NCBI GenBank assembly: GCA_023379265.1
Contig: JAMCUI010000007.1
Coordinates: 14,780-78,779 of the forward strand
Length of the DNA stretch: 64,000 bases
Origin: Patescibacteria group bacterium
GTDB taxonomy: Bacteria > Patescibacteriota > Microgenomatia > 2-02-FULL-39-11
Reading direction: 5' to 3'
Under the pieces are notes generated by a model. That model was not told the origin of the DNA. It ran no database searches and saw only the letters and a program-made list of their open reading frames with translations. Shown in pieces: positions 4,356 to 53,834 of this stretch (position 1 is the stretch's first letter; every line of letters starts with the position of its first letter). The position numbers and the translations under genes were made by a program.

Positions 4356-4568
4356 CTTGAACTGTTGAGCATTAACGTCTCTTCTTACCTTACTCTCCTT
4401 CCTTTTCCGATATTATTAATTTCATCACTTGTGAGTCCAGATAAGTTGATTTTATTGTGAAACGTGAGGGATAAAAGCACTGTTTTTTCTGTTGAAGTAT
4501 TTAGAACCGAAACTCTTAAGTTTTCCAGCAGTGCAAACAATGAACAAGTTTTTTAATTGGATTTTATG

Positions 4569-4640
4569 TGGAACCGGATGGAGTCGAACCATCTACATCG
4601 ACTTTATAAGAGTCGCGTTCTGCCGGTGAACTACGGTTCC
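4569..4640 (-). tRNA. tRNA-Ile (anticodon TAT/UAU)
   Basis: Reverse complement folds as acceptor GGAACCG/CGGTTCC, D-arm GTTC-ACCGGCA-GAAC, anticodon stem CGACT/AGTCG with loop CTTATAA (TAT), T-arm GATGG-TTCGACT-CCATC, discriminator A. No CCA. Confidence 0.8.
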
Positions 4641-4756: not shown

Positions 4757-7102
4757 TTATAGTTTAGCGCGCTGGGATATTTCTGCTTCTACTAATTCCC
4801 TAGGCCTTCCATACTTCAACCGTGAAAGAGAAAGTATCGCCTCTGCCACCTTGGGGTTTTCAATCTTCTTTTGCGCTGCCATATCTTTTCTCAAATCAAC
4901 AGAAAATGGTGGAACCGGTTTATTCCCTACTATGGTATTTACATAGGCATTATAAACGTCAACGTTAATAAGATCTCCTTCATTAAATACCGGAGTAAAC
5001 CAGTGTTGTAAATAATTAGCATCAGTTACGCCTACTCTAAATGTAATAAGTGTCCCAACGTTACCAAAGACGGCATTTTTTACCTCCTCCTCCATTTGTC
5101 CTATAAACTGGTTAGCCACACAAAGGTTTAGCCTGAATTTCCTGGCCTCAGAGAGTATTTGGGCAAAATCAGGTGTTGCAAAATTCTGAAATTCATCAAC
5201 ATAAAGAAAAAAGTCTTTTCTTTTATCTTCAGGAGTATCCACCCGACTCATGGCGGCTACCAGAATTTTTGGCACCAGGATTAAACCAAGGAAACTGGAA
5301 TTTTCTTCTCCCAGTTTTCCCTTGGCAAGATTGACAAGAAGAATCTTCCCTTCATCCATCACTTTTCTAAAATCAAACGCACTTTTACTTTGTCCGATTA
5401 TGTTTCTCATAAGTTTATTAGTGACAAAACGGCCGAATTTTGAAACAATATAATCCAATACTTCAGATTTATGAAAATCTGAAGTCTGCGCAATCTGGTC
5501 AGTCCAATAACGTCTTACAATCGGATCCTGAACTTTTGGAAGAAGCTCCTGAACATATGAAGAATCAGTCAGAACTCTAACAACCTCTACAAAAGAAGCA
5601 CCTGGCTCCACCATAACAGTCAACATTGCATTTCTTATGGCGTGCTCAAATCGTGGGCCAATAATACCTGTTTTCTGCGGATCATAAAGTTTGTACATTA
5701 ACCCTATGATTGAAGTGACTATAAAATGTTTCTGTTCCTCGGTATAGGCTTCAAGCATATTAAGTCCCATTGGTCTTTCTCCATCTGAAGGATCAAAATA
5801 GATGATATCCTCAGCTCTTTCTGGAGGAATAAGAGGTAAAAGTCCCTCAACTAAATCTCCGTGAGGATCAATAACTGCAACTCCTTTCCCTTCCTTTATA
5901 TCCTGCAAAACCATATCTTTCAGAAGTACAGATTTACCAACCCCTGTTTTCCCAATTATATAAACATGCCGCCTTCTGTCATCAAGTTGCATGTAAACAG
6001 GACGCATAATTCCACGGTAGACACTTTTACCTAAATACATTCCCGATGTTGGAGTTTCGGCAGGAGCTGGGGCTTTTTTGGATGTTACCCAGTTGATATG
6101 AGGCGTTTCAATAGTTTTATTGGGAAAATGGAATATTGTAGCCAACTCTTCACTGGAAAGGATAGAAAGTTGCCTATGTGGCCAGTTCACCATAGGAAAA
6201 TACCGATATATAAAATCCACCATAAATGAACTCTTCATTAGGTGCTTGGCACGGGTGAAGTGATTTAAGTCGGAAGCAAACTGTGCAAAGACCGCCTCAA
6301 TATTATGAAGATGCATGTTGGCTGACTCAAGCGTTGTCGAGGTTACTACTACCCTTATAACAGTCTTAAAACCAGGTTTTGAGGTCTTATTTTCAACCGC
6401 TTCAAGTACTTTAGGATCAACATTATACTTTGCTTTTTCAGGATTGGCTTCATTTTTCTTGATGCTGGAAACGTAACTTCTACCCTTTTTCTTCCACTTA
6501 CCATCAGCGGGAGTTATCAATATTTGTATAGAAGCACCTTCCCCAGTCTGCATTTTTCCTAGTGCAGAAGTAACTGCTGAAAGAGGATCGACAGGCAAGT
6601 CCTTATAAAAACGCATCGGGTAAAAATCCGCATGCTGTAGTATATAGGAGGCAAAAGCTACCTTTCCGTCTTCATTAAAAATATTATACTCATCCACCTC
6701 CTTAATTTCTGCCTCTGGATACATTCCGTAGATCTGCTTTTCTAACAGATCGCGCAAATGGTGATGAACAGATATATAAAACTTTATGTCTCCAGGGGTA
6801 CCGACTATCTCAAACGAAATATGATCTGAAGCTTTCAGGAATGACAAAAATCCTCCGTGAGAGAGTGAAGCGAGAGAGGAAAAAAACTGTTCAGCCGCAT
6901 CAATTTTTATTTCATTATTTTTGGGAACCATTACCTGCAATAACACAAACTCGAGACTTTTTTTCTCGCGTCCCCGGTGTTTCCACCAAAGAAAAAGAAA
7001 ATATGAAAGAAGCGACAATCCTACTAAAAGAATTACCAACGCTCCCATAACCAAAGCTAAGTCTTCAAGCCTAAAAACAATTTGTGAAGGATCAGTGTAC
7101 AT
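4757..7102 (-). CDS. membrane-anchored P-loop ATPase, VirD4/TraG/TraD-type type IV coupling protein-like (FtsK-HerA superfamily)
   Basis: 781 aa. N-terminal TM. Walker A GKTGVGKS followed by VIDPHGD (the DPKGE-like T4CP motif). IIYFDPSD...GLNML (NPL-like). Walker B YVDEFQNF. ARKFRLNLCVANQFIGQM resembles the T4CP RKxG...Q motif. The ~340-aa N-terminal domain before the P-loop is unusually long. Confidence 0.5.
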   Translation of the reverse strand: MYTDPSQIVFRLEDLALVMGALVILLVGLSLLSYFLFLWWKHRGREKKSLEFVLLQVMVPKNNEIKIDAAEQFFSSLASLSHGGFLSFLKASDHISFEIVGTPGDIKFYISVHHHLRDLLEKQIYGMYPEAEIKEVDEYNIFNEDGKVAFASYILQHADFYPMRFYKDLPVDPLSAVTSALGKMQTGEGASIQILITPADGKWKKKGRSYVSSIKKNEANPEKAKYNVDPKVLEAVENKTSKPGFKTVIRVVVTSTTLESANMHLHNIEAVFAQFASDLNHFTRAKHLMKSSFMVDFIYRYFPMVNWPHRQLSILSSEELATIFHFPNKTIETPHINWVTSKKAPAPAETPTSGMYLGKSVYRGIMRPVYMQLDDRRRHVYIIGKTGVGKSVLLKDMVLQDIKEGKGVAVIDPHGDLVEGLLPLIPPERAEDIIYFDPSDGERPMGLNMLEAYTEEQKHFIVTSIIGLMYKLYDPQKTGIIGPRFEHAIRNAMLTVMVEPGASFVEVVRVLTDSSYVQELLPKVQDPIVRRYWTDQIAQTSDFHKSEVLDYIVSKFGRFVTNKLMRNIIGQSKSAFDFRKVMDEGKILLVNLAKGKLGEENSSFLGLILVPKILVAAMSRVDTPEDKRKDFFLYVDEFQNFATPDFAQILSEARKFRLNLCVANQFIGQMEEEVKNAVFGNVGTLITFRVGVTDANYLQHWFTPVFNEGDLINVDVYNAYVNTIVGNKPVPPFSVDLRKDMAAQKKIENPKVAEAILSLSRLKYGRPRELVEAEISQRAKL

Positions 7103-7145: not shown

Positions 7146-7628
7146 CTAATCAGATTTTACTCTGATTATTTTTCCGTGTATGACTTTGAGCATTACATGA
7201 GCCTTTTTTAGTTTTTTGACACACCATACGGCCATCCATCGCAAAGCACTGCTTATTTGACTATGAAGTCCCGCTACAACCTGCTGATCCGAGATGGGCA
7301 AAACTACATTTGGTAAGGGGGTAACTGAAGCAACTAAGGGAATCGAAGCCCCAGATTGAGTTACTCCCAACTTTTTGACATCAGGAGGTAATTCAATTGA
7401 CTCTTTTATTGCTGTCACCCCCACCTCTGATACTTCTTTTGGTATCTCAACCTCTTTGGAAATCATCTGAGGTGTCTCGGAAGATGCAATTTTTATCGCC
7501 TCATGTTCTTTCCCTATCGATACAGATACTGTCTGATTCTTTACTCCCTTGTCTGACTTTATCCCAGAATTGCTTTTTACGCTTTGAGAATAATTCTTCT
7601 GTTGGGAGTTGGCAGGTGTGGTGTTCAT
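7146..7628 (-). CDS. hypothetical protein (Ser/Lys-rich, C-terminal amphipathic/hydrophobic tail)
   Basis: 160-aa ORF packed between the S-component-like gene and the ATPase. No motifs recognised. Confidence 0.35.
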   Translation of the reverse strand: MNTTPANSQQKNYSQSVKSNSGIKSDKGVKNQTVSVSIGKEHEAIKIASSETPQMISKEVEIPKEVSEVGVTAIKESIELPPDVKKLGVTQSGASIPLVASVTPLPNVVLPISDQQVVAGLHSQISSALRWMAVWCVKKLKKAHVMLKVIHGKIIRVKSD

Positions 7629-7663: not shown

Positions 7664-8296
7664 TCAGTTTTCCCTTGCTTTGTGATTCAATTTTATTCCA
7701 GAAAAATTAAGTGAAGACAGAAAAGTTTTTATGGTTTCAGCTGTAAAGAAAGAGATAGGAACTAAAACTACATTGCCTATGAGGTTGTATTTGAAAAAAG
7801 GCAAACCTAAAATATAAGCATCAACTAATCCGGATAATGTTCTTGGATACATACCCCAATTATCCAAAAACCATACGCCGAAATTCGTCCAAAGATAAAA
7901 CCAAAAAGACGCAGCAATACCCACACCTCCTGCCGTTAAAAGCTTAAAAACTAAATTTCTTTCTCCGGCAGCTTTACTTTTGAAATTTAGTTTCAAAATT
8001 CCCATCAAACCAATCACAATATAACCGCTCCATGTGAACATAAATATATTTGTATTTCCAATCAACACATCCGTAACCGCCATAATAAAAAAAGGTACAA
8101 CCAAAGCGTATTTTTTGCCCAAGTATGCAGCTGAAAGAAGAGTTGCTGAGGTAACAAATTCCACATTATCTCCGATATGAAAAACCGTTCTAGAGAGAAT
8201 ACCTAAAATTACTAGGATAAAAGCGAGTAAATATTTTTCTTTATCTTTTCTTCCCATTTTCCTCAAATTAAAATTTAGAATAAATCCATTCGACAT
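7664..8296 (-). CDS. small polytopic membrane protein, ECF-transporter S-component-like (candidate cobalamin/corrinoid substrate-binding component)
   Basis: 210 aa with ~6 predicted TM helices and a short basic C-terminus. Size and topology resemble ECF S components. It overlaps the DUF4430 gene and lies in an operon headed by a cobalamin-riboswitch-like leader. Confidence 0.35.
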   Translation of the reverse strand: MSNGFILNFNLRKMGRKDKEKYLLAFILVILGILSRTVFHIGDNVEFVTSATLLSAAYLGKKYALVVPFFIMAVTDVLIGNTNIFMFTWSGYIVIGLMGILKLNFKSKAAGERNLVFKLLTAGGVGIAASFWFYLWTNFGVWFLDNWGMYPRTLSGLVDAYILGLPFFKYNLIGNVVLVPISFFTAETIKTFLSSLNFSGIKLNHKAREN

Positions 8297-8741
8297 GGTC
8301 TCCTGGATATATCACATATCTATCAGCAGCAATAGTACCCGTTTTCCCATTTACCTTATATATCCAGCCGTATTGTCCACCATTTGCCCTATCGCCAATC
8401 TTGGTCACCATTATTCCGTATTTATACTGTTTTATCTCTATATCTATTTTCTTGTCAGTAGCCAATTTTTTAAGCGCCTGATATACTGTCTGTACGTATA
8501 CCTCGCCTGTTTCATTTTTTCCATTACCAAAATCAATTGACACTATTTCCAAAGATGTTACACTCTGCGTGGGTGACGGCTGCTGTTGATTGCTTAGCTC
8601 TGTGGTTTGAATATTACGGTTTACGATATTTGGTAAATTAATAACCGATTGCTGTTTTTGCAACACATATTGCCCAAAGACAACCAAAATTACTACGATT
8701 AAACCGGTAAATATAAACAATTTTTTTGAATTTCTTTTCAT
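8268..8741 (-). CDS. DUF4430-family (transcobalamin/intrinsic-factor beta-domain-like) secreted protein
   Basis: 157 aa. N-terminal signal anchor. The C-terminal motif GWIYKVNG...YVIYPGDHVEWIYS matches the W-x-Y-x-V-N-G ... D-G-D-x-V-x-W-x-Y signature of DUF4430 proteins, which are found next to ECF/cobalamin transporters. Confidence 0.5.
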   Translation of the reverse strand: MKRNSKKLFIFTGLIVVILVVFGQYVLQKQQSVINLPNIVNRNIQTTELSNQQQPSPTQSVTSLEIVSIDFGNGKNETGEVYVQTVYQALKKLATDKKIDIEIKQYKYGIMVTKIGDRANGGQYGWIYKVNGKTGTIAADRYVIYPGDHVEWIYSKF

Positions 8742-8796: not shown

Positions 8797-11283
8797 TTAA
8801 TTTATTGCTGTTTCTGAAGTAGCAGTGTCGCTAAAACTGTAAATTACTCCAGATAGGAGTATATTTGTTCTAAATCTCTTGTCATTCACTTTTATATTTT
8901 TTGTGTTTGCATTTTTGCCTTGAAATTTTCCTGAAAATAACAGTTTTTCTATTGATTTTACCTGCTGATCTTTGCCTTTTTTATACCATCTCCGGCTATT
9001 TTGACATTGTATTATATGCTGCTTAAGTTTGATAAATAAAACAAGACAATAAATTATAAAAAGAATCTCCCAATATGCTTCCTTATACTTATCCATTTCA
9101 AGATTTGACACCCGGTCTTGCAGTAATAATAACGGTAATAACCCATCTTTTAAGTTTAGGTATTGCTCCTCAAATAAGCTGTCATAACTTTTAAGAAATT
9201 CTATTTTCTCCTGTAACTGGTCTAGATTTTCTTGTGTAAATCTGTCGGAATAATCAGATATAAGCCGTTTCAGCTGAATATAGATAATTGTTGAAACAAG
9301 AAATTTAATCTGTTCGGGCATTTTATCCACTCTAAACACCTCCGTAAGTACTGACAATGAGGTAACAATATCTGAAATATTTTTGAGAATGGAAGGGATC
9401 TCTGGCTTTAAGAATGTCTGATCTCTAGAATCTTTGAGTAAATCTATTATTTCCTCAGTTAGAAATATCAAATCCATATATATTTCTCTTCTACCATTAC
9501 GAGTCAAACTATCCCGTTTTCCTGGATACGTAGCATTATTTTCCCCACATGTAAGAAAAGATTCCAATCTAAAATCATCAAAATATCTGAAAATATGTAC
9601 AAATCTTTCTGTAAAATCTGCATCCCACATCGGTTGAAAAATAAAACCATCCTTTTGAAAAGATGTGCTTTGTGAAATATCAAATCTATATTTATGCGCA
9701 ATAAGGCTATGTAATTTCATAAAGTCTTGCTGCACTTCTTTAGTATTTTGTGATAAACTAAATTCTCCAAATTGTCTACCTAACTTATTGCTATGTTCAG
9801 CGCTAAATTCTTTCTCTTCACTTAACTCTAAAGGTTTATTAGGACTCATCTCGATAATTTGTTTTTCGCTTCGTTTATAGCTCCCGGTCGTGCTTGAAAG
9901 TAGGGTTTTGAGATGACTTCTAGACTGATCTGGATTATGAGAAATCAGAAGAAACTGTTCAAAATTCAGTAATTGTTCTTCTAGTAAATCAATCTCAGCC
10001 AAAGTGTCTTTGACATAATTCCACGGCAATATTTCCTTTCGTTCATTGCTCTTTTCTTCACCATCTAAGATTTCTTTTTCTTCTTTCCCCTCCACGCTCT
10101 TTAACCATTCTTTTTTATCTAAAACATCTACTGGAAACACTTTGGGCAAAACAGTAGCTCCTACTGTATCATCAATCAAACTCCTCATAAAAGCATAAGC
10201 AGCCAACACACGCATCCGGTCTAGAGTATCAATCTCTCTAACCTCCTTGGCAAATTCGGTTTGAGATTTATCAAAATCACTTTTATTATCAGCATAAAAA
10301 TCTATCTCTTTGAAGTTTTCTTCTTTTTTCCTTTCTCTACCGTTTATCCTTTGAGTGGACATTCCATCAGACTCTAGTCTTTTGATACCATTTGTTCCGT
10401 TACCTCTACCTTCTCTAACAAAATCTTCTTCCACCTGTAAAACCAAAGCTTGAGCCATCATCGCAAAAGCTGTCTTTATATTCTTGTCTTTCTCTGCCAT
10501 CTTTTCCATTTCCCCTGCATAAAATTGCTCCTTTGCCTTATTTTCTGACTCTCTTTGGAAATCAGAGATTAATGTTTCCTGCTTAAACTTATCTAAAACG
10601 CTTTTCTCGCTTTCCCTCTTTTCTGCTGAAAACGATTGGGAAAATGATTCAAATATTTCCGTATGGTCAATATTTTTCCCCCGGGATTCAACTAAAACCG
10701 TTTCTTCTTCAATCGTATCGTGACGATCATGTTTTTCTCCAGTTACTCTATCCAAAAAATTCCATAGCGTGTCGCTATCCCCACCTACAGTATATGAAGT
10801 CAATTTGACGGTATCACCTTTTTTCTCTGCCTTATAAATCCTGTTATTTCTTCCGTGAGTATCCTTCGTCTCTTTCCTACTACTCACCCACACTGCAGTT
10901 ATATCAGACTCATCAGAAGCTATCTTATGATATTTATCAATAAGCTGACGATAGGTCTGCCCCCCATTCTCCTTATCATCAATCCATACCTCTGCCGCTT
11001 CTCCTTCCTGTGAGAGCAAAGTGTCCACGAATTCCTCCTGTCCGGAAATTTTATTTCTCACTTTTACATTTTTGCCTATCCTCAATGTAACTTGATTTAT
11101 GACGCTTCCATCGGTACTAAATTCATCCTGATATGTCCTCATATCCCGCGCCATGGCTGATACTGCTTTTTTACCCTCACCCAACCGCTCCATCACGCTA
11201 AAGGCTCTGGCGCTTGATAAATCATGATCTCCAGCTGAACCATTTGTTCCGATTCCCATCGGTGCAATCGCTTCAACCATCAT
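8797..11283 (-). CDS. large uncharacterised protein (828 aa), acidic/charged, single TM near C-terminus; first gene downstream of cobalamin-riboswitch-like leader
   Basis: Long ORF with no signal peptide and one hydrophobic segment (WEILFIIYCLVLFIKL) about 90 aa from the C-terminus. No catalytic motif recognised. Confidence 0.45.
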   Translation of the reverse strand: MMVEAIAPMGIGTNGSAGDHDLSSARAFSVMERLGEGKKAVSAMARDMRTYQDEFSTDGSVINQVTLRIGKNVKVRNKISGQEEFVDTLLSQEGEAAEVWIDDKENGGQTYRQLIDKYHKIASDESDITAVWVSSRKETKDTHGRNNRIYKAEKKGDTVKLTSYTVGGDSDTLWNFLDRVTGEKHDRHDTIEEETVLVESRGKNIDHTEIFESFSQSFSAEKRESEKSVLDKFKQETLISDFQRESENKAKEQFYAGEMEKMAEKDKNIKTAFAMMAQALVLQVEEDFVREGRGNGTNGIKRLESDGMSTQRINGRERKKEENFKEIDFYADNKSDFDKSQTEFAKEVREIDTLDRMRVLAAYAFMRSLIDDTVGATVLPKVFPVDVLDKKEWLKSVEGKEEKEILDGEEKSNERKEILPWNYVKDTLAEIDLLEEQLLNFEQFLLISHNPDQSRSHLKTLLSSTTGSYKRSEKQIIEMSPNKPLELSEEKEFSAEHSNKLGRQFGEFSLSQNTKEVQQDFMKLHSLIAHKYRFDISQSTSFQKDGFIFQPMWDADFTERFVHIFRYFDDFRLESFLTCGENNATYPGKRDSLTRNGRREIYMDLIFLTEEIIDLLKDSRDQTFLKPEIPSILKNISDIVTSLSVLTEVFRVDKMPEQIKFLVSTIIYIQLKRLISDYSDRFTQENLDQLQEKIEFLKSYDSLFEEQYLNLKDGLLPLLLLQDRVSNLEMDKYKEAYWEILFIIYCLVLFIKLKQHIIQCQNSRRWYKKGKDQQVKSIEKLLFSGKFQGKNANTKNIKVNDKRFRTNILLSGVIYSFSDTATSETAIN

Positions 11284-11319
11284 AAGAACTTAGAGAAACT
11301 ACATTTTCATTTAAGCCAA

Positions 11320-11345
11320 TAAAAAACCCTCTATCTCAAGAGGGT
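11320..11345 (-). terminator. intrinsic terminator (riboswitch expression platform)
   Basis: On the minus strand: ACCCUCU-UGAGAUAG-AGGGU hairpin followed by UUUUUUAUU. It lies between the aptamer and the start codon at 11283. Confidence 0.5.
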
Positions 11346-11454
11346 CAAAATGATCAACGAATTCTCAAGTTACCCAATTTCAAACAAGCAAATTATGTGT
11401 ACTTATTGATTGATTGGATAATTGTATTGTTTGTTGATTTATTACTTTCCTGCT

Positions 11455-11575
11455 CGGGATAAACTTGAAGGGGAGTTCCCGGCTTATATCGCAGAAGGCG
11501 AAATTCACGGTTGCGGCACAGTCCCTGATTTTCACAGGGTTCCTCTTTTCCTTCAATAGAGTTGTTAATTTACTT
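11455..11575 (-). ncRNA. cobalamin (B12) riboswitch, short-type aptamer
   Basis: The minus-strand RNA reads GGAACCCUGUGAAAAUCAGGGACUGUGCCGCAACCGUGAA...AAGCCGGGAACUCCCC. This matches the cobalamin riboswitch core GGAA-nnn-GGUG-AAA-UCC...GC-C-CCGCAAC-UGUAA and a B12-box-like AAGCC-GGGA...CCCC. It is followed by a terminator and then a gene. Confidence 0.55.
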
Positions 11576-12154
11576 CGTACTCAACCAGACATTTTCTTTT
11601 ACTTTTGCCATCTTATTAAGATATCTGGCTGTCTCAAAAAAAAGATCCGACAATCTATTTAAGTACACCAAGACTAATCTGTCAACATTGCTTTCTGTAT
11701 TATAAAGTCGCACTACTTCCCTCTCAGCTCTACGGCAGACAGATCGAGCAAGATGGGAAAACGATGCGGCTTTTGTGCCTCCCGGCAATATAAAATTTTT
11801 CAAAGGCTCAAGCTTTTCATCTATACTATCAATTAGCACTTCCATCTCACTATCACGCCCCTTTATGTTAACCAAATCGGATTTTCCAAGCGCCAGATGC
11901 GAACCAATTGAGAGTAAATCAGACTGTATTTTATGGAAAAAATCGGAAAGTTTCTTCTCTTTTTCCAAATGGGAAATAAGAACTCCAACTACAGAATTGA
12001 GCTCGTCAACTGTACCAAAAGCAACAACCCGCAAATTATGCTTCTCGACCCTTGTACCACCGTATAAAGAGGTTTTCCCATCATCACCAGTACGTGTGTA
12101 TATCTTTACTCTATTACCGGTTTTAATACTTCGTTTGGAATTTTTGCTTTTCAC
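11570..12154 (-). CDS. pduO: ATP:cob(I)alamin adenosyltransferase, PduO type
   Basis: 194 aa. N-terminal IYTRTGDDGKTSLYGGTRVEKHNLRVVAFGTVDELNSVVGV matches the PduO/MMAB signature (IYTRTGDxGxTSL...R...YG..DEL). Confidence 0.8.
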   Translation of the reverse strand: MKSKNSKRSIKTGNRVKIYTRTGDDGKTSLYGGTRVEKHNLRVVAFGTVDELNSVVGVLISHLEKEKKLSDFFHKIQSDLLSIGSHLALGKSDLVNIKGRDSEMEVLIDSIDEKLEPLKNFILPGGTKAASFSHLARSVCRRAEREVVRLYNTESNVDRLVLVYLNRLSDLFFETARYLNKMAKVKENVWLSTK

Positions 12155-12184: not shown

Positions 12185-14515
12185 TTAACATTCACTATAC
12201 CCGCAGCTGTAACACTTTTTACAACCTTCCTCAAAAGCCAACGATGCTTCTCCACATGAAGGACATAAATCATAGTCTGACTTTTCGGCGAGTAACGGCT
12301 GCTGCGTCAGGACTGATATTGTCGTCATACCATTTTGTATCTGATTATGCGCTACGCCATTTCCGTTTTTTATCTTGTAACCAAAATGCATTGCTAGCAC
12401 TTTGGCAACAGCATCCGGTAGTGACCTTACTTTTTTATCACCAAACCCTAAAGATTTTGATCCGCCAATACCGATAAGCTGATTGAATATCTGTTTGGCT
12501 CTTTCACTAGATGGAACGTTGGACTGCATCCTCAGCGCCAATGAAGCCAACCTACCCATAGCTTCTGCCATGGCAGTGACGTCAGATCCGGCCTTTCCGA
12601 CATTAATAAAGATTTCCAACGGTTCATTACTTTCACCGGTATTTATGGTGACAAAGGCCGCTCCAACTGGTGTATCGATCTGATATGTAGCTCCGTTTAC
12701 CATCATCGGTCTTGATTTTATCTGAGCTTTTGCCTCTCCATTGTGTTTTTCTTCCTTCTTCTCTTCAGTTTTTTCCGTAACTCTCTCCAACACTCCCGGC
12801 CTGCTACCATCTCTCATATACGTCATCCCTTTACAACCCAGATCATAAGCCAGACGATAAAGTTTTTGGACGTCTGCTACGGTATGCGTTTTGGGAGCGT
12901 TTACAGTCTTAGAGATAGAAGCATCCACATATTTCTGGATGGCAGCCTGCACCTTTACATGATCCTCAGGAGACAAATCATTGGCTGAGACAAAATATGA
13001 GGGAACAGGATCATTGGGATTCTTCTTTTTCCATTCTTCAAACAGCGGATGATAAAGCCTATGCTCTCCCAACCTGTCACGTCTGATGAACGAAAACTCA
13101 TAAACAGGCTCTATTCCTGAGGATACTCCAGCCAGAAGCGATGTGGAACCTGTTGGTGCTTGCTGTAGAAGAACTGAATTCCTTATGCCCCATTTTTTTA
13201 TTCCGTCCCTAATTTTCTTGGGCAATTGCTTGATAAAATAGCCTTTAAGATGTTTCTTTGTATCAAGTTTGGGAAATGATCCTTTTTCTTTGGCTATTTC
13301 AATTGAAGACTCGTAAGCAGCATCCCTTATTATCCTGTAAATTTTATCTATTATTTTGAGTGACTCGTCAGATCCATATCTAATCTTCATTTTTATCAGG
13401 GCATCTCCCAACCCCATCGTGCCCAAGCCGATACGTCTTTCACCGTTTTGCTGCACTTCCCTTATCTGGGGAAATACGTAAGCATCAGCATCAATTATGT
13501 CATCCTGAAACCTGACGCCAACTTTGGCGATTTCTGCCATTTGCTTGAGATCTATCCTTCCTTCCTCATCAACCAGTGAAGCCAGATTTATTGAGCAAAG
13601 ATTGCAGACTCCCCAGGCGGGTAGACCTTCTTCACCACAAGGATTTACGCAGTTTATCTTATTGAAATACCAATTATTAAACCATTTATTATATCTCTCC
13701 ATAAATACCACACCCGGCTCTGCTGAAGCCCAAGCAGCCTCGGCTATCATATCCCAGATTTTTCTAGCCTTTACTGTCTTCACCACTCTCACTTTTTTCC
13801 CAAGTTTTAACCAATTATCTAGATAACCATCCCATTTGGTATCATATTCCTTATCATTTATATCGGGGAACACCAGATCCCAATCACCATCTTTTTTTAC
13901 CGCATCCATAAATTTATCAGAAACACAAACCGAAAGATTGGCGCCGTTTATTCTGGATAAATCTCTTTTGACGGTAATGAATTCCTCGATATCTGGATGC
14001 CAATCCCACAACATAAGCATGAGGGCTCCACGCCTTGTTCCTCCCTGCTGGATGATATCTTTTGTTGCTACCGAAAAAAGTTCAGCCCAATTGCATGGAC
14101 CCGAAGAAAATCCATTTACCTTCTTCACACGGGAACCACGCGGCCGCAGAGATGAAAGGTTTATACCCACCCCTCCTCCTCTAGCCATAATCTCAACCAT
14201 TTGCTTTAGTGTTTCCAGTATTCCATCACGTGAATCTTTTGGGGAAGGAATAACAAAACAGTTGTAATAAGTTACTTTATATCCTGTTCCTGCTCCTGAT
14301 AGTATCCTTCCTCCAGGAACAAGTTTGAAATTTTCCATAGCATCGTAAAACTTCTTCTCCCAAGATTTTCTTTCTTCAGGCTTTTCCATCTCTGCCACAC
14401 CTCTGGCCACTCTTTTCCATAATTCTTCCGGTGTTTTTTCCTGGGGATTACCTTTATCGTCTTTTAAGGAGTAACGATCTAAAAAGACCTGTTCGCGGAT
14501 GCCTGTTAATTTCAT
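12185..14515 (-). CDS. nrdJ: ribonucleoside-diphosphate/triphosphate reductase, adenosylcobalamin-dependent (class II)
   Basis: 776 aa. Class II active-site region NPCGEEGLPAWGVCNLCSINL, a glycyl-radical-free architecture, and a C-terminal Cys-rich zinc ribbon CPSCG...CKKCYSCGYSEC. Confidence 0.9.
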   Translation of the reverse strand: MKLTGIREQVFLDRYSLKDDKGNPQEKTPEELWKRVARGVAEMEKPEERKSWEKKFYDAMENFKLVPGGRILSGAGTGYKVTYYNCFVIPSPKDSRDGILETLKQMVEIMARGGGVGINLSSLRPRGSRVKKVNGFSSGPCNWAELFSVATKDIIQQGGTRRGALMLMLWDWHPDIEEFITVKRDLSRINGANLSVCVSDKFMDAVKKDGDWDLVFPDINDKEYDTKWDGYLDNWLKLGKKVRVVKTVKARKIWDMIAEAAWASAEPGVVFMERYNKWFNNWYFNKINCVNPCGEEGLPAWGVCNLCSINLASLVDEEGRIDLKQMAEIAKVGVRFQDDIIDADAYVFPQIREVQQNGERRIGLGTMGLGDALIKMKIRYGSDESLKIIDKIYRIIRDAAYESSIEIAKEKGSFPKLDTKKHLKGYFIKQLPKKIRDGIKKWGIRNSVLLQQAPTGSTSLLAGVSSGIEPVYEFSFIRRDRLGEHRLYHPLFEEWKKKNPNDPVPSYFVSANDLSPEDHVKVQAAIQKYVDASISKTVNAPKTHTVADVQKLYRLAYDLGCKGMTYMRDGSRPGVLERVTEKTEEKKEEKHNGEAKAQIKSRPMMVNGATYQIDTPVGAAFVTINTGESNEPLEIFINVGKAGSDVTAMAEAMGRLASLALRMQSNVPSSERAKQIFNQLIGIGGSKSLGFGDKKVRSLPDAVAKVLAMHFGYKIKNGNGVAHNQIQNGMTTISVLTQQPLLAEKSDYDLCPSCGEASLAFEEGCKKCYSCGYSEC

Positions 14516-14566: not shown

Positions 14567-15013
14567 TTACAACAATTTATTCAACTCTCTCTCAAAATCT
14601 TCCAAATCTACAAATCTTCTGAAAACTGACGCAAACCTTATATATGCAATCTTGTCTACTTTCTTCAGTTTGTTTGCAACCAGCTGACCTATTTTTTTAC
14701 TGTCAACCTCTGTCGTATCCAAACCTCTCAGTTCTCTTTCTATCTCATCTGTAATCCGCTCTATATCTTCTATTCCAACAAGCGTCTTTTCGCAAGATTT
14801 TATAATCCCGTGTTTCAATTTATCTCTGTCAAACTGCTCTTTTCTCCCATCTTTTTTTATGACAATTATAGGAACACTTTCCACTCTTTCGTATGTGGTA
14901 AATCTTTTCGTACATTTACTACATTCCCTTCTCCTTCTGGTTGTACCCAGATCTTCACTATCTCTTGTTTCAACAACCTCTGTATCGCTATTACTACAAA
15001 ACGGGCATTTCAT
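14567..15013 (-). CDS. nrdR: transcriptional repressor NrdR
   Basis: 148 aa. N-terminal zinc ribbon MKCPFCSNSDTEVVETRDS...CSKC followed by an ATP-cone domain. Confidence 0.9.
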   Translation of the reverse strand: MKCPFCSNSDTEVVETRDSEDLGTTRRRRECSKCTKRFTTYERVESVPIIVIKKDGRKEQFDRDKLKHGIIKSCEKTLVGIEDIERITDEIERELRGLDTTEVDSKKIGQLVANKLKKVDKIAYIRFASVFRRFVDLEDFERELNKLL

Positions 15014-22687: not shown

Positions 22688-23491
22688 CTATTTATCAATG
22701 AGATATAAATGATGGAGAGGCCCGTGTCCTTTTCCAATATTTAATCCAACGGAATATTTCAACGCTTCCGAGATATATCTTTTGGCTATTTTGACTGCTT
22801 GAGGTAAACTTTTACCTTTGGCGAGTTCTGCTGCGATAGCTGAAGAGAAAGTACATCCTGTACCGTGAGTATTTTTTGTTTCTATTCTTTTTTCATCAAA
22901 AATATGGAATGATTTTCCGTCATAAAGAATATCTATGGAATTTTTACTTTCTGGCAAATGCCCACCTTTAACAATTACATTTTTAGGGCCCATTTTTTTG
23001 AGAAACACAGCGGCTTTTTTCATTTCTGATATTTCCCTCACTTCAATTCCCAGCATAGCTTTGACTTCGTGAAGATTGGGAGTAATGACAAATGATAAAG
23101 GAAAAAGATATTTTATAAGTGTCGACTGAGCATCTTTTTTTAATAACCTATCCCCGCTTTTTGCGACCATGACAGGATCAACAACAATAGGGATTTCCTT
23201 ATATTTCTTCAGTCCAGAAGCGACTGTTTTTATTATTTGATTACTAGCTAACATACCGATTTTTATGACATCCGGCTTCAGATCTTCCATTACCGATTTT
23301 ATCTGCTCTGTCACAATAGATATTGGCAACTCAAAAACTCTCTGCACCCCAATAGTATTTTGGGCCGTAATGGCAGTAATAACACTCATTCCATAAACTC
23401 TTCTTGCGGCAAAAGTTTTCAAGTCCGCCTGGATACCTGCTCCCCCGCCGCTATCTGACCCTGCAATAGTCAATACTTTTTTTAGTTGCAT
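22688..23491 (-). CDS. thiD: hydroxymethylpyrimidine/phosphomethylpyrimidine kinase
   Basis: 267 aa. N-terminal LTIAGSDSGGGAGIQADLKTFAA signature of ThiD. Confidence 0.85.
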   Translation of the reverse strand: MQLKKVLTIAGSDSGGGAGIQADLKTFAARRVYGMSVITAITAQNTIGVQRVFELPISIVTEQIKSVMEDLKPDVIKIGMLASNQIIKTVASGLKKYKEIPIVVDPVMVAKSGDRLLKKDAQSTLIKYLFPLSFVITPNLHEVKAMLGIEVREISEMKKAAVFLKKMGPKNVIVKGGHLPESKNSIDILYDGKSFHIFDEKRIETKNTHGTGCTFSSAIAAELAKGKSLPQAVKIAKRYISEALKYSVGLNIGKGHGPLHHLYLIDK

Positions 23492-23536
23492 AAATTCTAA
23501 ATATCATGCCAAACTTGTTTCGGCATCTCGTTAATA

Positions 23537-24568
23537 TTAACTAGATTCTGAAACAAGTTTAGGAAGACTTAAAATATGATCCCAACTCTCCAATTTTAAT
23601 CGTATGCGTTTACCATCACTATTAACTAACCAACTTCCTTCTTTTTCTGGCAAAATTTTACCGATTATGTTCACATTTGTGTTTGTCTTTTTTTTAATTT
23701 TAGAAATTAAGAGTTCTGTATTCTTTTTACTAACGGTAAATAATAATTCGTAATCTTCTCCTCCGTTAAGAGCTAAATCATATGGATTCTTTTTAATAGA
23801 TTTAGCAAATTCCAACATGTCTTTGGCAACCGGAAGCTTATCCTCATATATCTCAACTCCGACTCTACTTCTCTCACAAATGTGACCTATGTCACCGCTT
23901 AATCCGTCACTTACATCAATCATTGCTGTTGCCATATGACTGGCGGCAATTAATTTTGACTCGCCAATTCTGGGATTTGGGGCCAGCTGTCTCTGCAATA
24001 ATCTTTTAGTTTTTACCAATAAAAATTTTCTATCTTTGGCTATAAAAAGACCCGCAGCAGCATCTCCCAACGTACCAGTTACTAAAACGTTATCTCCAAT
24101 ATTTGCGCCGGACCGTAAAAGCAGATCCCTCTTTTTTACTTTTCCCAGCATAAAAATATCAATTGCCCAATCTTTTCCCGAAGATATATTTCCTCCTGCC
24201 ACCTGTATATTGTATTTATTACAAGCTATATCTATTCCTCTATAAATTCTTTGAACAAAATCGGTAGAGATATTCTTGGGCAAAATCAGAGAAATCAGAC
24301 AGACGGTGGGTAACCCGCCCATTGCGGCAATATCGCTAATGTTTATTGCAATTGCTTTGTGGCCGATATTTTCCGGCTCCAAATTTTCCAAAACAAAATG
24401 TCTGCCCGCAACCTGTATATCACAAGTTACCAGCTCAAGATAATTTTTATCAAAAGACAAAACTGCACAGTCATCACCGATTCCCACAATTACATCACGA
24501 TTCTTTACTTTCAACTCTGACGTAAGCTTTTTAATTAACTCAAATTCACCAGGTAACTTAAGCGGCAT
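23537..24568 (-). CDS. thiL: thiamine-monophosphate kinase
   Basis: 343 aa. GEFELI...IGDDCAVL...HF motif of the AIR-synthase-related ThiL family. Confidence 0.8.
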   Translation of the reverse strand: MPLKLPGEFELIKKLTSELKVKNRDVIVGIGDDCAVLSFDKNYLELVTCDIQVAGRHFVLENLEPENIGHKAIAINISDIAAMGGLPTVCLISLILPKNISTDFVQRIYRGIDIACNKYNIQVAGGNISSGKDWAIDIFMLGKVKKRDLLLRSGANIGDNVLVTGTLGDAAAGLFIAKDRKFLLVKTKRLLQRQLAPNPRIGESKLIAASHMATAMIDVSDGLSGDIGHICERSRVGVEIYEDKLPVAKDMLEFAKSIKKNPYDLALNGGEDYELLFTVSKKNTELLISKIKKKTNTNVNIIGKILPEKEGSWLVNSDGKRIRLKLESWDHILSLPKLVSESS

Positions 24569-25367
24569 ATATTTTTGCTCCCTTTGCCAGTTGGCTCGGG
24601 CTCATATTATATAAAGTATCAAGAAGAGCGATTTTGAAACTAGCCGGGCCTTTTGCATTTTTAGCTGCGATTTCAGCAGCATAACCATAACATGCAAGCG
24701 CTGCAGAAGATGCAAAAGCATAATTCTTTTCTACTGCACAAAAAGCAGCCACCATGGTAGTAGACATACAACCTGTTCCGGTGTTCGTCGAAAGCCATTG
24801 GTCACCGTTATCAACAAAATATGTTTCTTTTCCAGAAGATACAATGTCGCGCTTTCCCGTAATAACCACAACTGTCTTATATTTTTTAGCTAGACTTTGT
24901 GCTACTTTCACTGGGTCCTTTATGCCTTCAACGCTTTCCACTCCTTTTACTTTACCTCCTGCACCAGCCACAGCACCTATCTCTCCGTGGTTTCCCCTCA
25001 ATACTGCTATTTCCAATTTACTTAATAGCTCAAGTGAAGTACTGGAACGCAATTTAGTAGCGCCTGCCCCAACTGGGTCAAGTATAATCGGAATCCTCAT
25101 GCTGTTTGCTTTTCTTCCAGCAATAAACATTGATTCAATCCATTCTTTTGATAATGTTCCAATATTTAAAACCAATGCGTTTGCAATACCTGTCATTTCC
25201 TTCATCTCTTCCCTTGCATGGGCCATGACTGGAAGAGCTCCCACATGCAGTGTGACATTTGCCGTATCATTCATCACGACAAAATTAGTAATATGGTGCA
25301 GAAGCGGTCTTTTTTCTCTCACTCTTTTTAATATTTCTCCTGCTCCTTGATTTAATTTTTTATCCAT
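24558..25367 (-). CDS. thiM: hydroxyethylthiazole kinase
   Basis: 269 aa. ITNFVVMNDTANVTLHVGALPVMAH and Gly-rich ATP-binding segments typical of ThiM. Confidence 0.8.
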   Translation of the reverse strand: MDKKLNQGAGEILKRVREKRPLLHHITNFVVMNDTANVTLHVGALPVMAHAREEMKEMTGIANALVLNIGTLSKEWIESMFIAGRKANSMRIPIILDPVGAGATKLRSSTSLELLSKLEIAVLRGNHGEIGAVAGAGGKVKGVESVEGIKDPVKVAQSLAKKYKTVVVITGKRDIVSSGKETYFVDNGDQWLSTNTGTGCMSTTMVAAFCAVEKNYAFASSAALACYGYAAEIAAKNAKGPASFKIALLDTLYNMSPSQLAKGAKIYAA

Positions 25368-25405
25368 AACTCTCCTAATAATTAAATTTAATAATTTATA
25401 TAAAA

Positions 25406-26038
25406 TTAACTTTTCGCTTCACTAACTATTTTTTTTAATTTTTCTGCAGCTAATTTCGGTTCATTTACCAGAAATACTGCAGATATTACGGCAATTCCAT
25501 CGGCTCTCGCCCGTATTACTTGATTTGCATTTTCCAAAGTTACTCCTCCTATTCCTACAATGGGAATTTTTACCACTTTTTTAATTTTTTTAAGCATGCC
25601 AATCCCGACAGGCTTACCTGTATCTGTTTTAGTTGTGGAGCCGAAAATGTCACTTACACCCAAATAGTCAGCCCCGTCTTTGACTGCTTTTTTTGCTTCT
25701 ACCACATTGCTCGCTGTAACCCCCAATATTTTTTCCCGTCCGATAATCTGTCGGACAATATTTGCTGGCATATCGCTTTGCCCCACATGTACTCCTTCAG
25801 CATCAATTGCCAATGCCACATCAATCCTGTCGTCAATGATAAGAGGAATACCCGCTTTCGTTGTAATTTTATGAAGAGCTCTACCTTCTTCAATCATCAG
25901 TCGTGTGGAAGCATTTTTTTCCCTATATTGCACAATTGTCACTCCACCTTCTATTGCTAATGCAACAATTGAAAGGACTGATTTTTTTCCGGCCAAATTC
26001 TTGTCAGTGACCAAATAAAGACTGTAGTCAATATTCAT
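25406..26038 (-). CDS. thiE: thiamine-phosphate synthase
   Basis: 210 aa. YLVTD...VQYREK...GADYLGV motifs of ThiE. Confidence 0.85.
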   Translation of the reverse strand: MNIDYSLYLVTDKNLAGKKSVLSIVALAIEGGVTIVQYREKNASTRLMIEEGRALHKITTKAGIPLIIDDRIDVALAIDAEGVHVGQSDMPANIVRQIIGREKILGVTASNVVEAKKAVKDGADYLGVSDIFGSTTKTDTGKPVGIGMLKKIKKVVKIPIVGIGGVTLENANQVIRARADGIAVISAVFLVNEPKLAAEKLKKIVSEAKS

Positions 26039-27353
26039 TGAAAATCACTCTCAGTTTCATAAAAAGTAAATATACAATAGACACGCAGACAAATGTCGGA
26101 AGGGATGCTCCCAGATCTGGCAGTTTTCTGGTAATAAACTGGTAGACTAAAATCCCAAAAACCCAAGATGACATTGCCAACCAATTAATTCCTTTTGAAA
26201 ACCAATACAGACCATGTCTGCTATAAAGCTCTTTTGTAGCTATATTTCCTTTATGTATAAAAAAATAGTCAGTAATAAGAATGGCAAAAAGAGGAATGAA
26301 TATTGACCCTATAAGATAAAGGAAATTCTCATACTGTGTAATATTCAGGAACATTGCGGAAATTAAAGAGAATATTCCCAAAAAAATAATAAGTGTCCGT
26401 TGCTTTATATGGGGAAAGATATTTTGTGTTGATACTGCTGAAGAGTATAAATCTGCCCAGGCTTCTTTTGTCTCGTCAACCAAAAGTATAAGAAGCGCCA
26501 GTGAACCGGCAGACAATAAAACCGCCTGAATGAATCCTATCGTCTCCTGGGTTATGGAAGTTGTCATAAGTATGACCGCGCCAACAGTATAAAGCCATAT
26601 ATTTGAGAGAAAATACCCCCAAAAAGACCCCCAAAAAGCATGCCTGTCGTTTTTTGCAAACCTATTAAAATCAGCAATCAAAGGCAACCAAGATATAGGC
26701 ATAGCAATCACTATATCCACCCCAGACCAGAAAGAGAGGCTACCATCTCCGGCTTTTCTCAAAAGTGTGGAAATATTGTTTCCGGCAAAAATATGATAAG
26801 TCAACCAAGCTGTAGTCAAAATCACAATCCACACGGCATACCTTTTGAGCCACTTTCTTACCACAGCCGTTACTCCCCCTATTCCCATTAGAATGACTAA
26901 AAAAGCAAATATAATGATACTTATGTAATAATTTCCAAATCCAAAGAGTGATTTTAGTATCGCCACTGCCGTCATGCCCATAACGACAAATTCAAAGATT
27001 GTCCAGCCAATAAGTTGTATCACATTAAAAAATGATGGTAACCATGATCCTCTTATGCCCAAAATCGATCTTAAAAGAACCATTGTTGGAGCATGAGTCC
27101 TGCTGCCCATAAGACCCACAGCTGCCAAAAGTATGCATCCGACAAAAGAACCTATGATAATTGCGGTAAATGCCTGAAAAAAACCAAGCCCCGGAGAAAG
27201 AAAACTGCCTGCCAAAAGAACAAGAAGACCCATACCCAAATCTCCCCACAGGACAAAATAATCAAAGAAACCAAGTATCTGATATTTTTGGGGTACAGGC
27301 TCAATCCCCCATTCCGGGAGGGACCTGACAATCTGAATTTTCTTTTTACTCAT
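26028..27353 (-). CDS. cytX: NCS1-family permease, candidate hydroxymethylpyrimidine transporter CytX
   Basis: 441 aa with about 12 TM helices. It is the first gene after the TPP riboswitch and is co-operonic with thiE/thiM/thiL/thiD, the classical CytX context. Confidence 0.55.
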   Translation of the reverse strand: MSKKKIQIVRSLPEWGIEPVPQKYQILGFFDYFVLWGDLGMGLLVLLAGSFLSPGLGFFQAFTAIIIGSFVGCILLAAVGLMGSRTHAPTMVLLRSILGIRGSWLPSFFNVIQLIGWTIFEFVVMGMTAVAILKSLFGFGNYYISIIIFAFLVILMGIGGVTAVVRKWLKRYAVWIVILTTAWLTYHIFAGNNISTLLRKAGDGSLSFWSGVDIVIAMPISWLPLIADFNRFAKNDRHAFWGSFWGYFLSNIWLYTVGAVILMTTSITQETIGFIQAVLLSAGSLALLILLVDETKEAWADLYSSAVSTQNIFPHIKQRTLIIFLGIFSLISAMFLNITQYENFLYLIGSIFIPLFAILITDYFFIHKGNIATKELYSRHGLYWFSKGINWLAMSSWVFGILVYQFITRKLPDLGASLPTFVCVSIVYLLFMKLRVIFNEY

Positions 27354-27380: not shown

Positions 27381-27405
27381 AAAAAAACCATTCCGCAAGG
27401 AATGG
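27381..27405 (-). terminator. intrinsic terminator (TPP riboswitch expression platform)
   Basis: On the minus strand: CCAUUCC-UUGC-GGAAUGG followed by UUUUUUUAU, immediately 5' of the cytX start. Confidence 0.6.
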
Positions 27406-27520
27406 CTGTATATTTTCCCTGCGTTGGCATTATCCAAATCAGGTTATATGGGTCATCCCGATATATTTCGAGAACTCTCAGCCTGATTTCCATCAAGCTC
27501 CCCATTTAATAATTAATATT
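27405..27520 (-). ncRNA. TPP (THI-box) riboswitch
   Basis: Minus-strand RNA contains GGGGAGC...GGCUGAGA...GAUGACCC...AACCUGAUUUGGAUAAUGCCAACGCAGGGA. This is a near-consensus THI element (CUGAGA; ACCUGAUCUGGAUAAUGCCAGCGUAGGGA). Confidence 0.85.
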
Positions 27521-51210: not shown

Positions 51211-51592
51211 TAGAAGAAGAACCTGGTAAAGCCTTTCCATTCACTTCAACTTTCGAAGAAATCATTTGTTTGAATTCATCTCTTAACTGCGTAATCGTCT
51301 CGCTCTCTTGTTGTTCACGCAAATCACGCATAAATTTTTGATATACCTGATCTTCTATTTTCCTATATAAACTCTTATCCATTGATCTTTTTCCTTCTTG
51401 TACATCCAGAAGCGCTCTTTCAAATTCATATTGGATGTTGGCCTTTAGATAGTCATAGTATGCTGACCATAAGATTTTCTCTAGCATCAGTTTCTGGTCG
51501 GGAGTATATGACCCGATTTTAGCAAGAGTATCCTGCCTGACTTTTTCATCAATCGGCAGGAATTTAAGAAGCTGCTGCGTCGTTACAACCAT
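51203..51592 (-). CDS. hypothetical protein
   Basis: 129-aa charged helical ORF, convergent with the giant gene. No motifs recognised. Confidence 0.35.
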   Translation of the reverse strand: MVVTTQQLLKFLPIDEKVRQDTLAKIGSYTPDQKLMLEKILWSAYYDYLKANIQYEFERALLDVQEGKRSMDKSLYRKIEDQVYQKFMRDLREQQESETITQLRDEFKQMISSKVEVNGKALPGSSSTK

Positions 51593-51607
51593 ATTTACCT
51601 TAAAAAT

Positions 51608-53761: not shown

Positions 53762-53834
53762 AATTTCAGCCTAGCAAATGAGGTAGGGAAATGCAACTGC
53801 CGGCAAAATATCTTTCGAACAAATACTGGAAAAT

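Follow-up and report, generated by a model that had tools for sequence, protein, structure and literature searches.

An orphan Gottesmanbacteria gene leads a riboswitch-attenuated extension of the nrdR-nrdJ-pduO operon

Many Patescibacteria depend on a vitamin B12-dependent ribonucleotide reductase for every deoxynucleotide and, to our knowledge, members of this group cannot make B12 themselves. The closest described system to the locus analysed here is the nrdJ-cbrS-cbrT-pduO cluster of Lactobacillus delbrueckii, which includes CbrT of the energy-coupling factor (ECF) system ECF-CbrT (PDB 6FNP; PMC5997447). We examined a 64,000-nucleotide stretch of DNA from a Patescibacteria group bacterium (GenBank assembly GCA_023379265.1, contig JAMCUI010000007.1, positions 14,780 to 78,779; hereafter the window), in which a gene for an 828-residue protein, here called X, stands behind a cobalamin riboswitch. 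The order on the minus strand is nrdR-nrdJ-pduO, riboswitch, X, then the genes for a DUF4430 protein, a DUF6580 protein, a 160-residue protein and a VirD4/HerA-like ATPase, and finally a tRNA (Table 1). As in L. delbrueckii, the NrdJ and PduO of a B12 auxotroph are grouped with a small polytopic membrane protein that may carry B12, here the DUF6580 protein, which is possibly a CbrT-like S-component; its profile gave a full-length, weak match to the 182-residue membrane chain of 6FNP (E 0.14, below significance), and we found no paper mentioning DUF6580 in the literature. Unlike the L. delbrueckii cluster, the window has a riboswitch attenuator after pduO and, as far as the quoted gene names allow a comparison, adds X, the 160-residue protein and the ATPase. 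The scanned open reading frames (ORFs) of the 64-kb window, to which this search was confined, included no energising module of ECF transporters (EcfA/EcfT).

X opens a B12-attenuated extension of the nrdR-nrdJ-pduO operon, with the aptamer and terminator placed inside a co-oriented gene string directly after two B12-using genes. At 32.8 bits the window aptamer passes the RF00174 gathering score (31.5) marginally, and confidence in it comes from the retention of this element at orthologous positions, where the scores were 38-50 bits (L001, L006, L010, L017, L021, L023 and L024 among the 37 related loci that we collected and annotated with local hidden Markov models, HMMs). A match to the cobalamin clan was found between pduO and X in 17/19 scanned loci, and in 8 of these it reached the gathering score; several of the 19 are near-duplicates, so that the independent count is lower. 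In L016 the scan of the pduO-X interval gave no match, and the aptamer of L002, which has insertions in its peripheral stems, was recovered by alignment; the aptamer core of the window could be aligned with those of L001 and L002. The hairpin stem of the terminator (GACCCTCT and AGAGGGTTTTTT, at 11346-11325) is present in the minimum free energy fold of the leader, the stem and T-run are kept in the L001 and L002 leaders, and the ATG of X (11283) follows about 40 nt beyond. The locus thus has the expression platform of a cobalamin riboswitch (Rfam CL00101: RF00174 / RF01689), a terminator between the aptamer and X, and in our scans there was no intervening terminator between the pduO stop codon and the aptamer and none convincing between X and the ATPase gene. 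That X comes first behind a B12 riboswitch, as a sequence-only reading of this DNA had proposed, is therefore borne out by the RF00174 aptamer, the terminator and the same layout in orthologous loci, and the comparison of loci strongly supports the link of X to B12. The leaders of the window, L001 and L002 share an identical 12-nt box (ATCCCGAGCAGG, window 11449-11460, minus strand) at the aptamer's 3' edge, the aptamer stems otherwise differing among the three; the box may be part of the switching (anti-terminator) element.

This layout suggests that transcripts reading through nrdJ and pduO would reach the riboswitch and be terminated when adenosylcobalamin is plentiful, whereas the X operon would be made when it is scarce. 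Control of B12 uptake or handling genes by an aptamer with an intrinsic terminator is also the arrangement of cobalamin riboswitch regulons (RF00174, RF01689); the present case differs from these in that no B12-regulon family described so far includes the lead gene and in that the aptamer is inside an operon, after B12-consuming genes. No paper in the literature was found to join Patescibacteria, cobalamin and riboswitch.

X is a translated gene under purifying selection. The ratio of nonsynonymous to synonymous substitution rates (dN/dS) against the L002 orthologue, which is 87% identical, was 0.257 over the whole gene, which establishes that the ORF is real, and the start codon is supported by an N-terminal motif, M-[MI]-x-E-A, that is kept across the family. 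The deposited protein is identical to X and is annotated as 'hypothetical protein M1271_01510 [Patescibacteria group bacterium]'. The protein is soluble, without membrane anchor or signal peptide. The high charge noted in the sequence-only reading is real (E 9.9%, K 9.2%, D 7.5%; D+E+K+R = 32%), and so is the absence of a signal peptide, since 0/50 family members had a signal-peptide-like N-terminus. The same reading had described a hydrophobic helix near the C-terminus and had taken X for a tail-anchored or type II membrane protein. An apolar stretch does exist at residues 740-751 (ILFIIYCLVLFI), 77 residues from the C-terminus, with a 19-residue Kyte-Doolittle maximum of 2.04. Given that it has only 12 uncharged residues, that P0003 has a charged amphipathic sequence in its place and that uncharged runs of at least 18 residues occur in only 2/50 members, at unrelated positions, the membrane anchor is unsupported. 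The most hydrophobic segment of family members shifts between residues 266 and 1150. Topology was judged by simple hydropathy analysis, not by DeepTMHMM.

X belongs to an orphan, lineage-restricted and previously undescribed family with an unmatched fold. X matched nothing in the Pfam, NCBIfam, PADLOC or PHROGs libraries. When 5.8 billion clusters were searched by a word index, 4 relatives came up, and an exhaustive HMMER search with the N-terminal profile against 1.84 billion representatives gave 51 (50% clustering), none of which (0/51) matched Pfam. A domain of about 290 residues at or near the N-terminus is found in all relatives except one 92-residue fragment, and leaving aside this fragment and a 371-residue member the lengths are 651-1439 residues. 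Every relative with a named source is a hypothetical protein of Candidatus Gottesmanbacteria, and a genome scan with the subfamily alignment found a single species-representative genome, a Gottesmanbacteria metagenome-assembled genome. Searches with X, the N-domain profile and the full-length profile against PDB sequences gave no meaningful match, and a fold search with the N-domain model (residues 1-290) found no clear relative in PDB or BFVD; PAS, GAF and longin-roadblock alpha/beta sandwiches were among the folds considered for its core sheet. In the PDB profile search a corrinoid iron-sulfur protein appeared at E 0.81; the match covers only a 60-residue helical stretch and was discarded as noise. 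The canonical, Rossmann-like B12-binding domain (PF02310, with the His-on motif DxHxxG) was absent from X and the 51 members both as profile match and as motif, the local sequence being G-D-H-D-L, or G-G-C-x-F in most members. No sequence or fold likeness to solved representatives of BtuF, BtuG, BtuH, transcobalamin/DUF4430, BtuM or CbrT was detected. Neither of two findings that would have spoken against a role with B12 was made: no family unrelated to cofactor transport was clearly matched, and homologues were found only in a B12 context, with NrdJ-PduO upstream and an aptamer in front.

Three regions can be distinguished in X. The N-terminal domain is alpha/beta, with an AlphaFold2 (AF2) model of good quality for the first 290 residues (predicted local distance difference test score, pLDDT, 86.2; predicted template modelling score, pTM, 0.84). 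It contains three invariant residues (E54, T88 and R148, among 51 members) and seven that are nearly so (W132, S134, K154, Y164, H207, D241 and R244), and the conserved residues are at or near the termini of strands and helices in the model. Position 20 is Cys in 35/51 members, His in 14/51 and Ser in 2/51, and residues 1-18 have pLDDT <50, i.e. a flexible N-terminal arm. Calculated against L002, dN/dS is 0.135 in the N-domain (290 codons), 0.336 in the middle and 0.235 in the tail. Between genomes that share 79-82% identity in NrdJ and the ATPase, the hypervariable middle retains only about 21%. The tail has the motif E-[KR]-L, a K/R-rich stretch and FP-x-x-G-[IV]-I-Y-x-Y in all subfamilies, and the last 60 residues are net-positive in nearly all 50 members.

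The related loci were compared for what accompanies X. Wherever the available DNA suffices, X lies between PduO and the small 160-residue protein, with NrdR and NrdJ upstream and the ATPase downstream; two subfamilies have the DUF4430-DUF6580 pair in the interval from X to the small protein. Two ORFs that escaped the HMM, in L017 (669 residues) and L020 (1239 residues), were identified by hhalign (97%) as divergent members of the X family. L022 (8207-12730), the one locus from which X is missing, has no aptamer either; only 70 nt separate pduO from DUF4430 there, and the genes for DUF6580, the small protein and the ATPase come next. In another lineage of Patescibacteria (L028, L030-L032 and L034) the slot behind the cobalamin aptamer, which scored 48-54 bits (only 28 in L034), is occupied by a protein of 370-490 residues ending in a zinc ribbon. 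The small protein comes next, and these loci have no DUF4430, DUF6580 or ATPase. The pattern of L022 and of the zinc-ribbon loci thus associates the riboswitch with the slot gene and the small-protein gene rather than with the ATPase or the transporter genes. The zinc-ribbon slot family is rare (9 clusters) and is marked by RERGG, YSPPG and GSCGG motifs and a C-terminal CPxC...CxxC zinc ribbon. It adds a further orphan protein to the B12 regulons and may be a remote relative of X: RERGG is collinear with GE.G.G of X and W/Y-SPPG with WVSPG, and hhalign against the X N-domain gave a probability of 29% (E 6e-4) with 4 sequences. With 10 sequences this fell to 1.3% (E 0.04), and the two families were for that reason kept separate. 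P0012 (371 residues) was considered as a bridge between them and rejected, since it lacks the zinc ribbon and may be truncated. Neither the small protein nor the zinc-ribbon family gave anything against PDB beyond generic eL43-type zinc-ribbon matches.

Table 1. Positions of the features of the locus, in window coordinates unless a related locus is named.
Feature	Position	Strand	Basis
NrdR repressor	14567..15013	minus	TIGR00244, 186 bits
NrdJ, adenosylcobalamin-dependent ribonucleotide reductase	12185..14515	minus	TIGR02504, 569 bits vs cutoff 400
PduO-type ATP:cob(I)alamin adenosyltransferase	11570..12154	minus	PF01923, E 1e-55; TIGR00636 above cutoff
Cobalamin riboswitch aptamer	11453..11569	minus	RF00174 match; starts 1 nt past pduO stop codon
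Intrinsic terminator (expression platform), 8-bp GC-rich stem and T-run	11318..11346	minus	leader fold and scan
Gene X, 828 residues, orphan family specific to Gottesmanbacteria	8797..11283	minus	ATG ORF, deposited protein, dN/dS, family search
X, N-terminal conserved alpha/beta domain, residues 1-290	10414..11283	minus	family alignments and AF2 model
X, codon 20, His in the window, candidate metal/cobalt ligand	11224..11226	minus	family column; ligand role putative
X, hypervariable all-helical middle of variable length, residues 291-760	9004..10413	minus	alignments, dN/dS 0.336
X, 'hydrophobic helix', residues 740-751, ILFIIYCLVLFI	9031..9066	minus	12 residues, not conserved
X, conserved basic C-terminal tail, residues 761-828, and stop codon	8797..9003	minus	C-terminal alignment, 50 members
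DUF4430 protein with N-terminal membrane anchor	8268..8741	minus	PF14478, E 2e-11
DUF6580 polytopic membrane protein	7664..8296	minus	PF20221, E 3e-30
160-residue protein, no known family, no transmembrane helix, basic C-terminus	7146..7628	minus	library scans, alignment
781-residue membrane-anchored P-loop ATPase, DUF8128 and TrwB/VirD4/HerA-like	4757..7102	minus	library scans; N-terminal membrane segment
Zinc-ribbon slot proteins, 350-490 residues	L028:283-1746, L030:622-1842, L031:5815-6927, L034:8849-9970		between pduO and small protein

The DUF4430 domain is the C-terminal domain of transcobalamin-type (TCN) binders (PMC4350170), and the anchor together with this domain is kept in 5 loci. 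The DUF4430 protein is thus likely an extracytoplasmic B12 binder and a better candidate than X for that role. The 160-residue protein, with the conserved C-terminus W..WC.KKLKKAH..LKVIHGKIIRV, accompanies the riboswitch-controlled slot more constantly than any other protein (window, L001, L004-L007, L010 and the 27 metagenome loci L011-L037), following X in Gottesmanbacteria and the zinc-ribbon protein, of unrelated appearance, in the other lineage; its gene frequently overlaps the start of the ATPase gene. The ATPase is 99% identical to the L002 copy with a dN/dS of 0.034 and keeps about 80% identity across deep splits within Gottesmanbacteria, where its best matches are found. It belongs to a family of at least 7,812 clusters at 90% identity, matches phrog_5156 with E 2e-94, has a TraG-D_C region and shows weak matches to the DNA translocases TraD, VirD4, CedB, CedD and FtsK. 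The gene junctions from X to the ATPase are gaps of 35-55 nt or overlaps. ARAGORN placed a tRNA-Ile with a TAT anticodon at window 4568-4640 (minus strand), just downstream of the ATPase gene, and a tRNA is kept there in related loci.

As to function, we tentatively propose, mainly from gene context and residue conservation, that X may act in the cytoplasm, where it would bind or process corrinoid and supply it to PduO and NrdJ. The N-domain would bind the incoming corrinoid, with the Cys or His at position 20, on its flexible arm, as a candidate axial cobalt ligand and with a pocket that could be formed by the invariant polar cluster E54, T88, R148, S134, H207 and D241. X might process the corrinoid (decyanation or dealkylation) or merely hold it, and would pass it to the adjacent PduO adenosyltransferase for use by NrdJ, while the tail and spacer might dock X to a partner, either the 160-residue protein or the membrane ATPase. 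This proposal is consistent with the invariable presence of NrdJ and PduO upstream and the usual presence downstream of the B12-binder-like DUF4430 and CbrT-like DUF6580 proteins, and also with the polar or charged nature of the conserved N-domain residues, the Cys/His column and the low dN/dS of that domain. Several observations weigh against it. In the most divergent subfamily (subfamily 3; L006, L007 and L008) the cluster lacks both DUF4430 and DUF6580, which means that X is not tied to this transporter. X is dispensable in L022, a relative that keeps the transporter genes. The identity of X between genomes is 22-33%, compared with about 50% for PduO and 81-82% for NrdJ, and such fast divergence is unusual for a dedicated cofactor chaperone. 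Finally, the alternation of Cys and His follows subfamily lines and therefore represents few evolutionary events.

The tight or overlapping junctions, the tail motif kept in all subfamilies and the fact that X is the fastest-evolving gene of the cluster could also be expected if X had no corrinoid chemistry and were a hitch-hiker or scaffold, i.e. a fast-evolving, lineage-specific adaptor for the 160-residue protein and the VirD4/HerA-like ATPase. The latter would then be a host-interaction or DNA/protein-translocation machine that is up-regulated under B12 starvation, hence the attenuator. X, the small protein and the ATPase do remain together in subfamily 3, where DUF4430 and DUF6580 are missing, and the small protein and ATPase are also found without X or NrdJ (L025) and where X was lost (L022). 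The riboswitch, however, follows the X slot and not the ATPase, given that L022 has the ATPase and neither X nor aptamer and that L028-L034 have aptamer, slot protein and small protein but no ATPase. In addition, invariant polar residues such as those of the N-domain are typical of a ligand-binding or active site, and the shared synteny is partly inherited because all members come from one lineage. We regard an adaptor of this kind as unlikely, if still worth serious consideration.

Somewhat less probable is that X is repressed by B12 as a B12-independent substitute for a B12-dependent step, like metE or nrdAB/nrdDG elsewhere. Riboswitch control of B12-independent isozymes is established in B12 regulons, which fits this explanation, and nucleotide-salvage genes surround the cluster (adenosine deaminase, IMPDH, GuaA and NrdR, with a deoxyribosyltransferase in L006). 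When NrdJ lacks its cofactor, X and the small basic protein, in Gottesmanbacteria together with the FtsK/Ced-like ATPase, might secure deoxynucleotides by import or processing of DNA or nucleosides, and the weak resemblance of the ATPase to DNA translocases would suit such a task, as would the slot of the other lineage, with a zinc-ribbon protein and then a basic small protein and no transporter genes. Yet library and fold searches revealed no nuclease, kinase or ribonucleotide reductase-like motif or fold in X, the uptake-type genes DUF4430 and DUF6580 share its transcription unit in most loci, and the zinc-ribbon loci have no ATPase.

The conserved, net-positive tail and the presence in the X operon of a VirD4/TraD-like ATPase with a TraG-D_C region raise the idea that the ATPase recognises the tail and delivers X to the cell surface or to a host, where the N-domain would capture corrinoid for DUF4430 and DUF6580. 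A PrgI-family protein of the type IV secretion system (T4SS) is encoded elsewhere in the window, and the very fast divergence of the helical middle is what would be expected of a host-facing protein. We nevertheless find this scheme doubtful: no channel components adjoin the ATPase, dN/dS is below 1 throughout X, the tail is read as a signal by analogy only, and L022 keeps the ATPase without X. We know of no consensus T4SS translocation signal defined for the Gottesmanbacteria lineage. On a still bolder reading, and with still lower probability, X might be a B12-starvation-induced cargo of the ATPase, a protein 'corrinophore' or effector that reaches the surface by export or enters the episymbiont's host cell by injection, whose new Cys/His-ligating fold would capture host corrinoids and whose basic C-terminal tail would act as the translocation signal. 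Least credible of all is a membrane protein, tail-anchored or of type II, that captures B12 as a surface tether, for which the one apolar stretch at 740-751 and its hydropathy maximum could be cited and which founders on the shortness of that stretch, its charged counterpart in P0003, the lack of any positionally conserved long uncharged run in the family and the absence of a signal peptide.

If X is a cytoplasmic corrinoid factor as proposed, two known systems would be comparable in the way they work. BtuM is a solitary S-component-like B12 carrier and decyanase that binds base-off corrinoid with a cysteine as axial cobalt ligand (PMC6072759). The proposed ligation of cobalt by a Cys of X resembles this as a works-like comparison only, BtuM being an integral membrane protein of about 190 residues and X a soluble protein of 828 residues without sequence or fold similarity to it. 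In eukaryotes CblC (MMACHC) and CblD (MMADHC) act upstream of the PduO-type adenosyltransferase MMAB, and the position proposed for X, a cytoplasmic receiver or processor between an importer and a PduO-type adenosyltransferase, would be similar. X is not a member of these families: it had no Pfam match, and no CblC/MMACHC or CblD/MMADHC entry was present among the fold matches listed. All tests of membership having failed, X was placed in neither the BtuM nor the CblC/CblD families.

Some further features were observed in the window and the related loci. A thiamine pyrophosphate (TPP) riboswitch (65 bits; window 27398-27514, minus strand) precedes a thiamine salvage operon (22688-27353, minus strand) encoding a cytosine/purine-type permease, ThiE, ThiM, a protein like aminoimidazole ribotide (AIR) synthase (ThiL-type) and ThiD. 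The region 46336-55781 has a GC content of 0.42-0.45 compared with about 0.38 and contains three large ORFs without Pfam match (1624, 717 and 648 residues). A ClpB-like ORF at 56512-60843 is unusually long (1443 residues), the PrgI-family (T4SS-type) domain mentioned above lies in a 497-residue ORF at 61141-62634, and two tRNAs with CAT anticodons are located at 440-512 and 1696-1768. In L007 (34-3528) the NrdJ of 1164 residues contains an intein (Intein_splicing and LAGLIDADG), and group I intron matches were found beside a tRNA gene downstream of the cluster in L010 (17441-17637), L021 (15570-15766) and L017 (16937-17080).

The locus shows a known arrangement, NrdJ and PduO with a B12 carrier and a riboswitch, that is extended here by three undescribed proteins. 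If it is true that X binds corrinoids, its fold would be a new one among cobalamin binders, and bacteria would have in X a counterpart of the trafficking step served by CblC/CblD. If instead X is a partner or cargo of the VirD4-like ATPase, vitamin starvation would be linked to the host-interaction machinery of episymbionts. The soluble domain of 290 residues makes either outcome directly testable.

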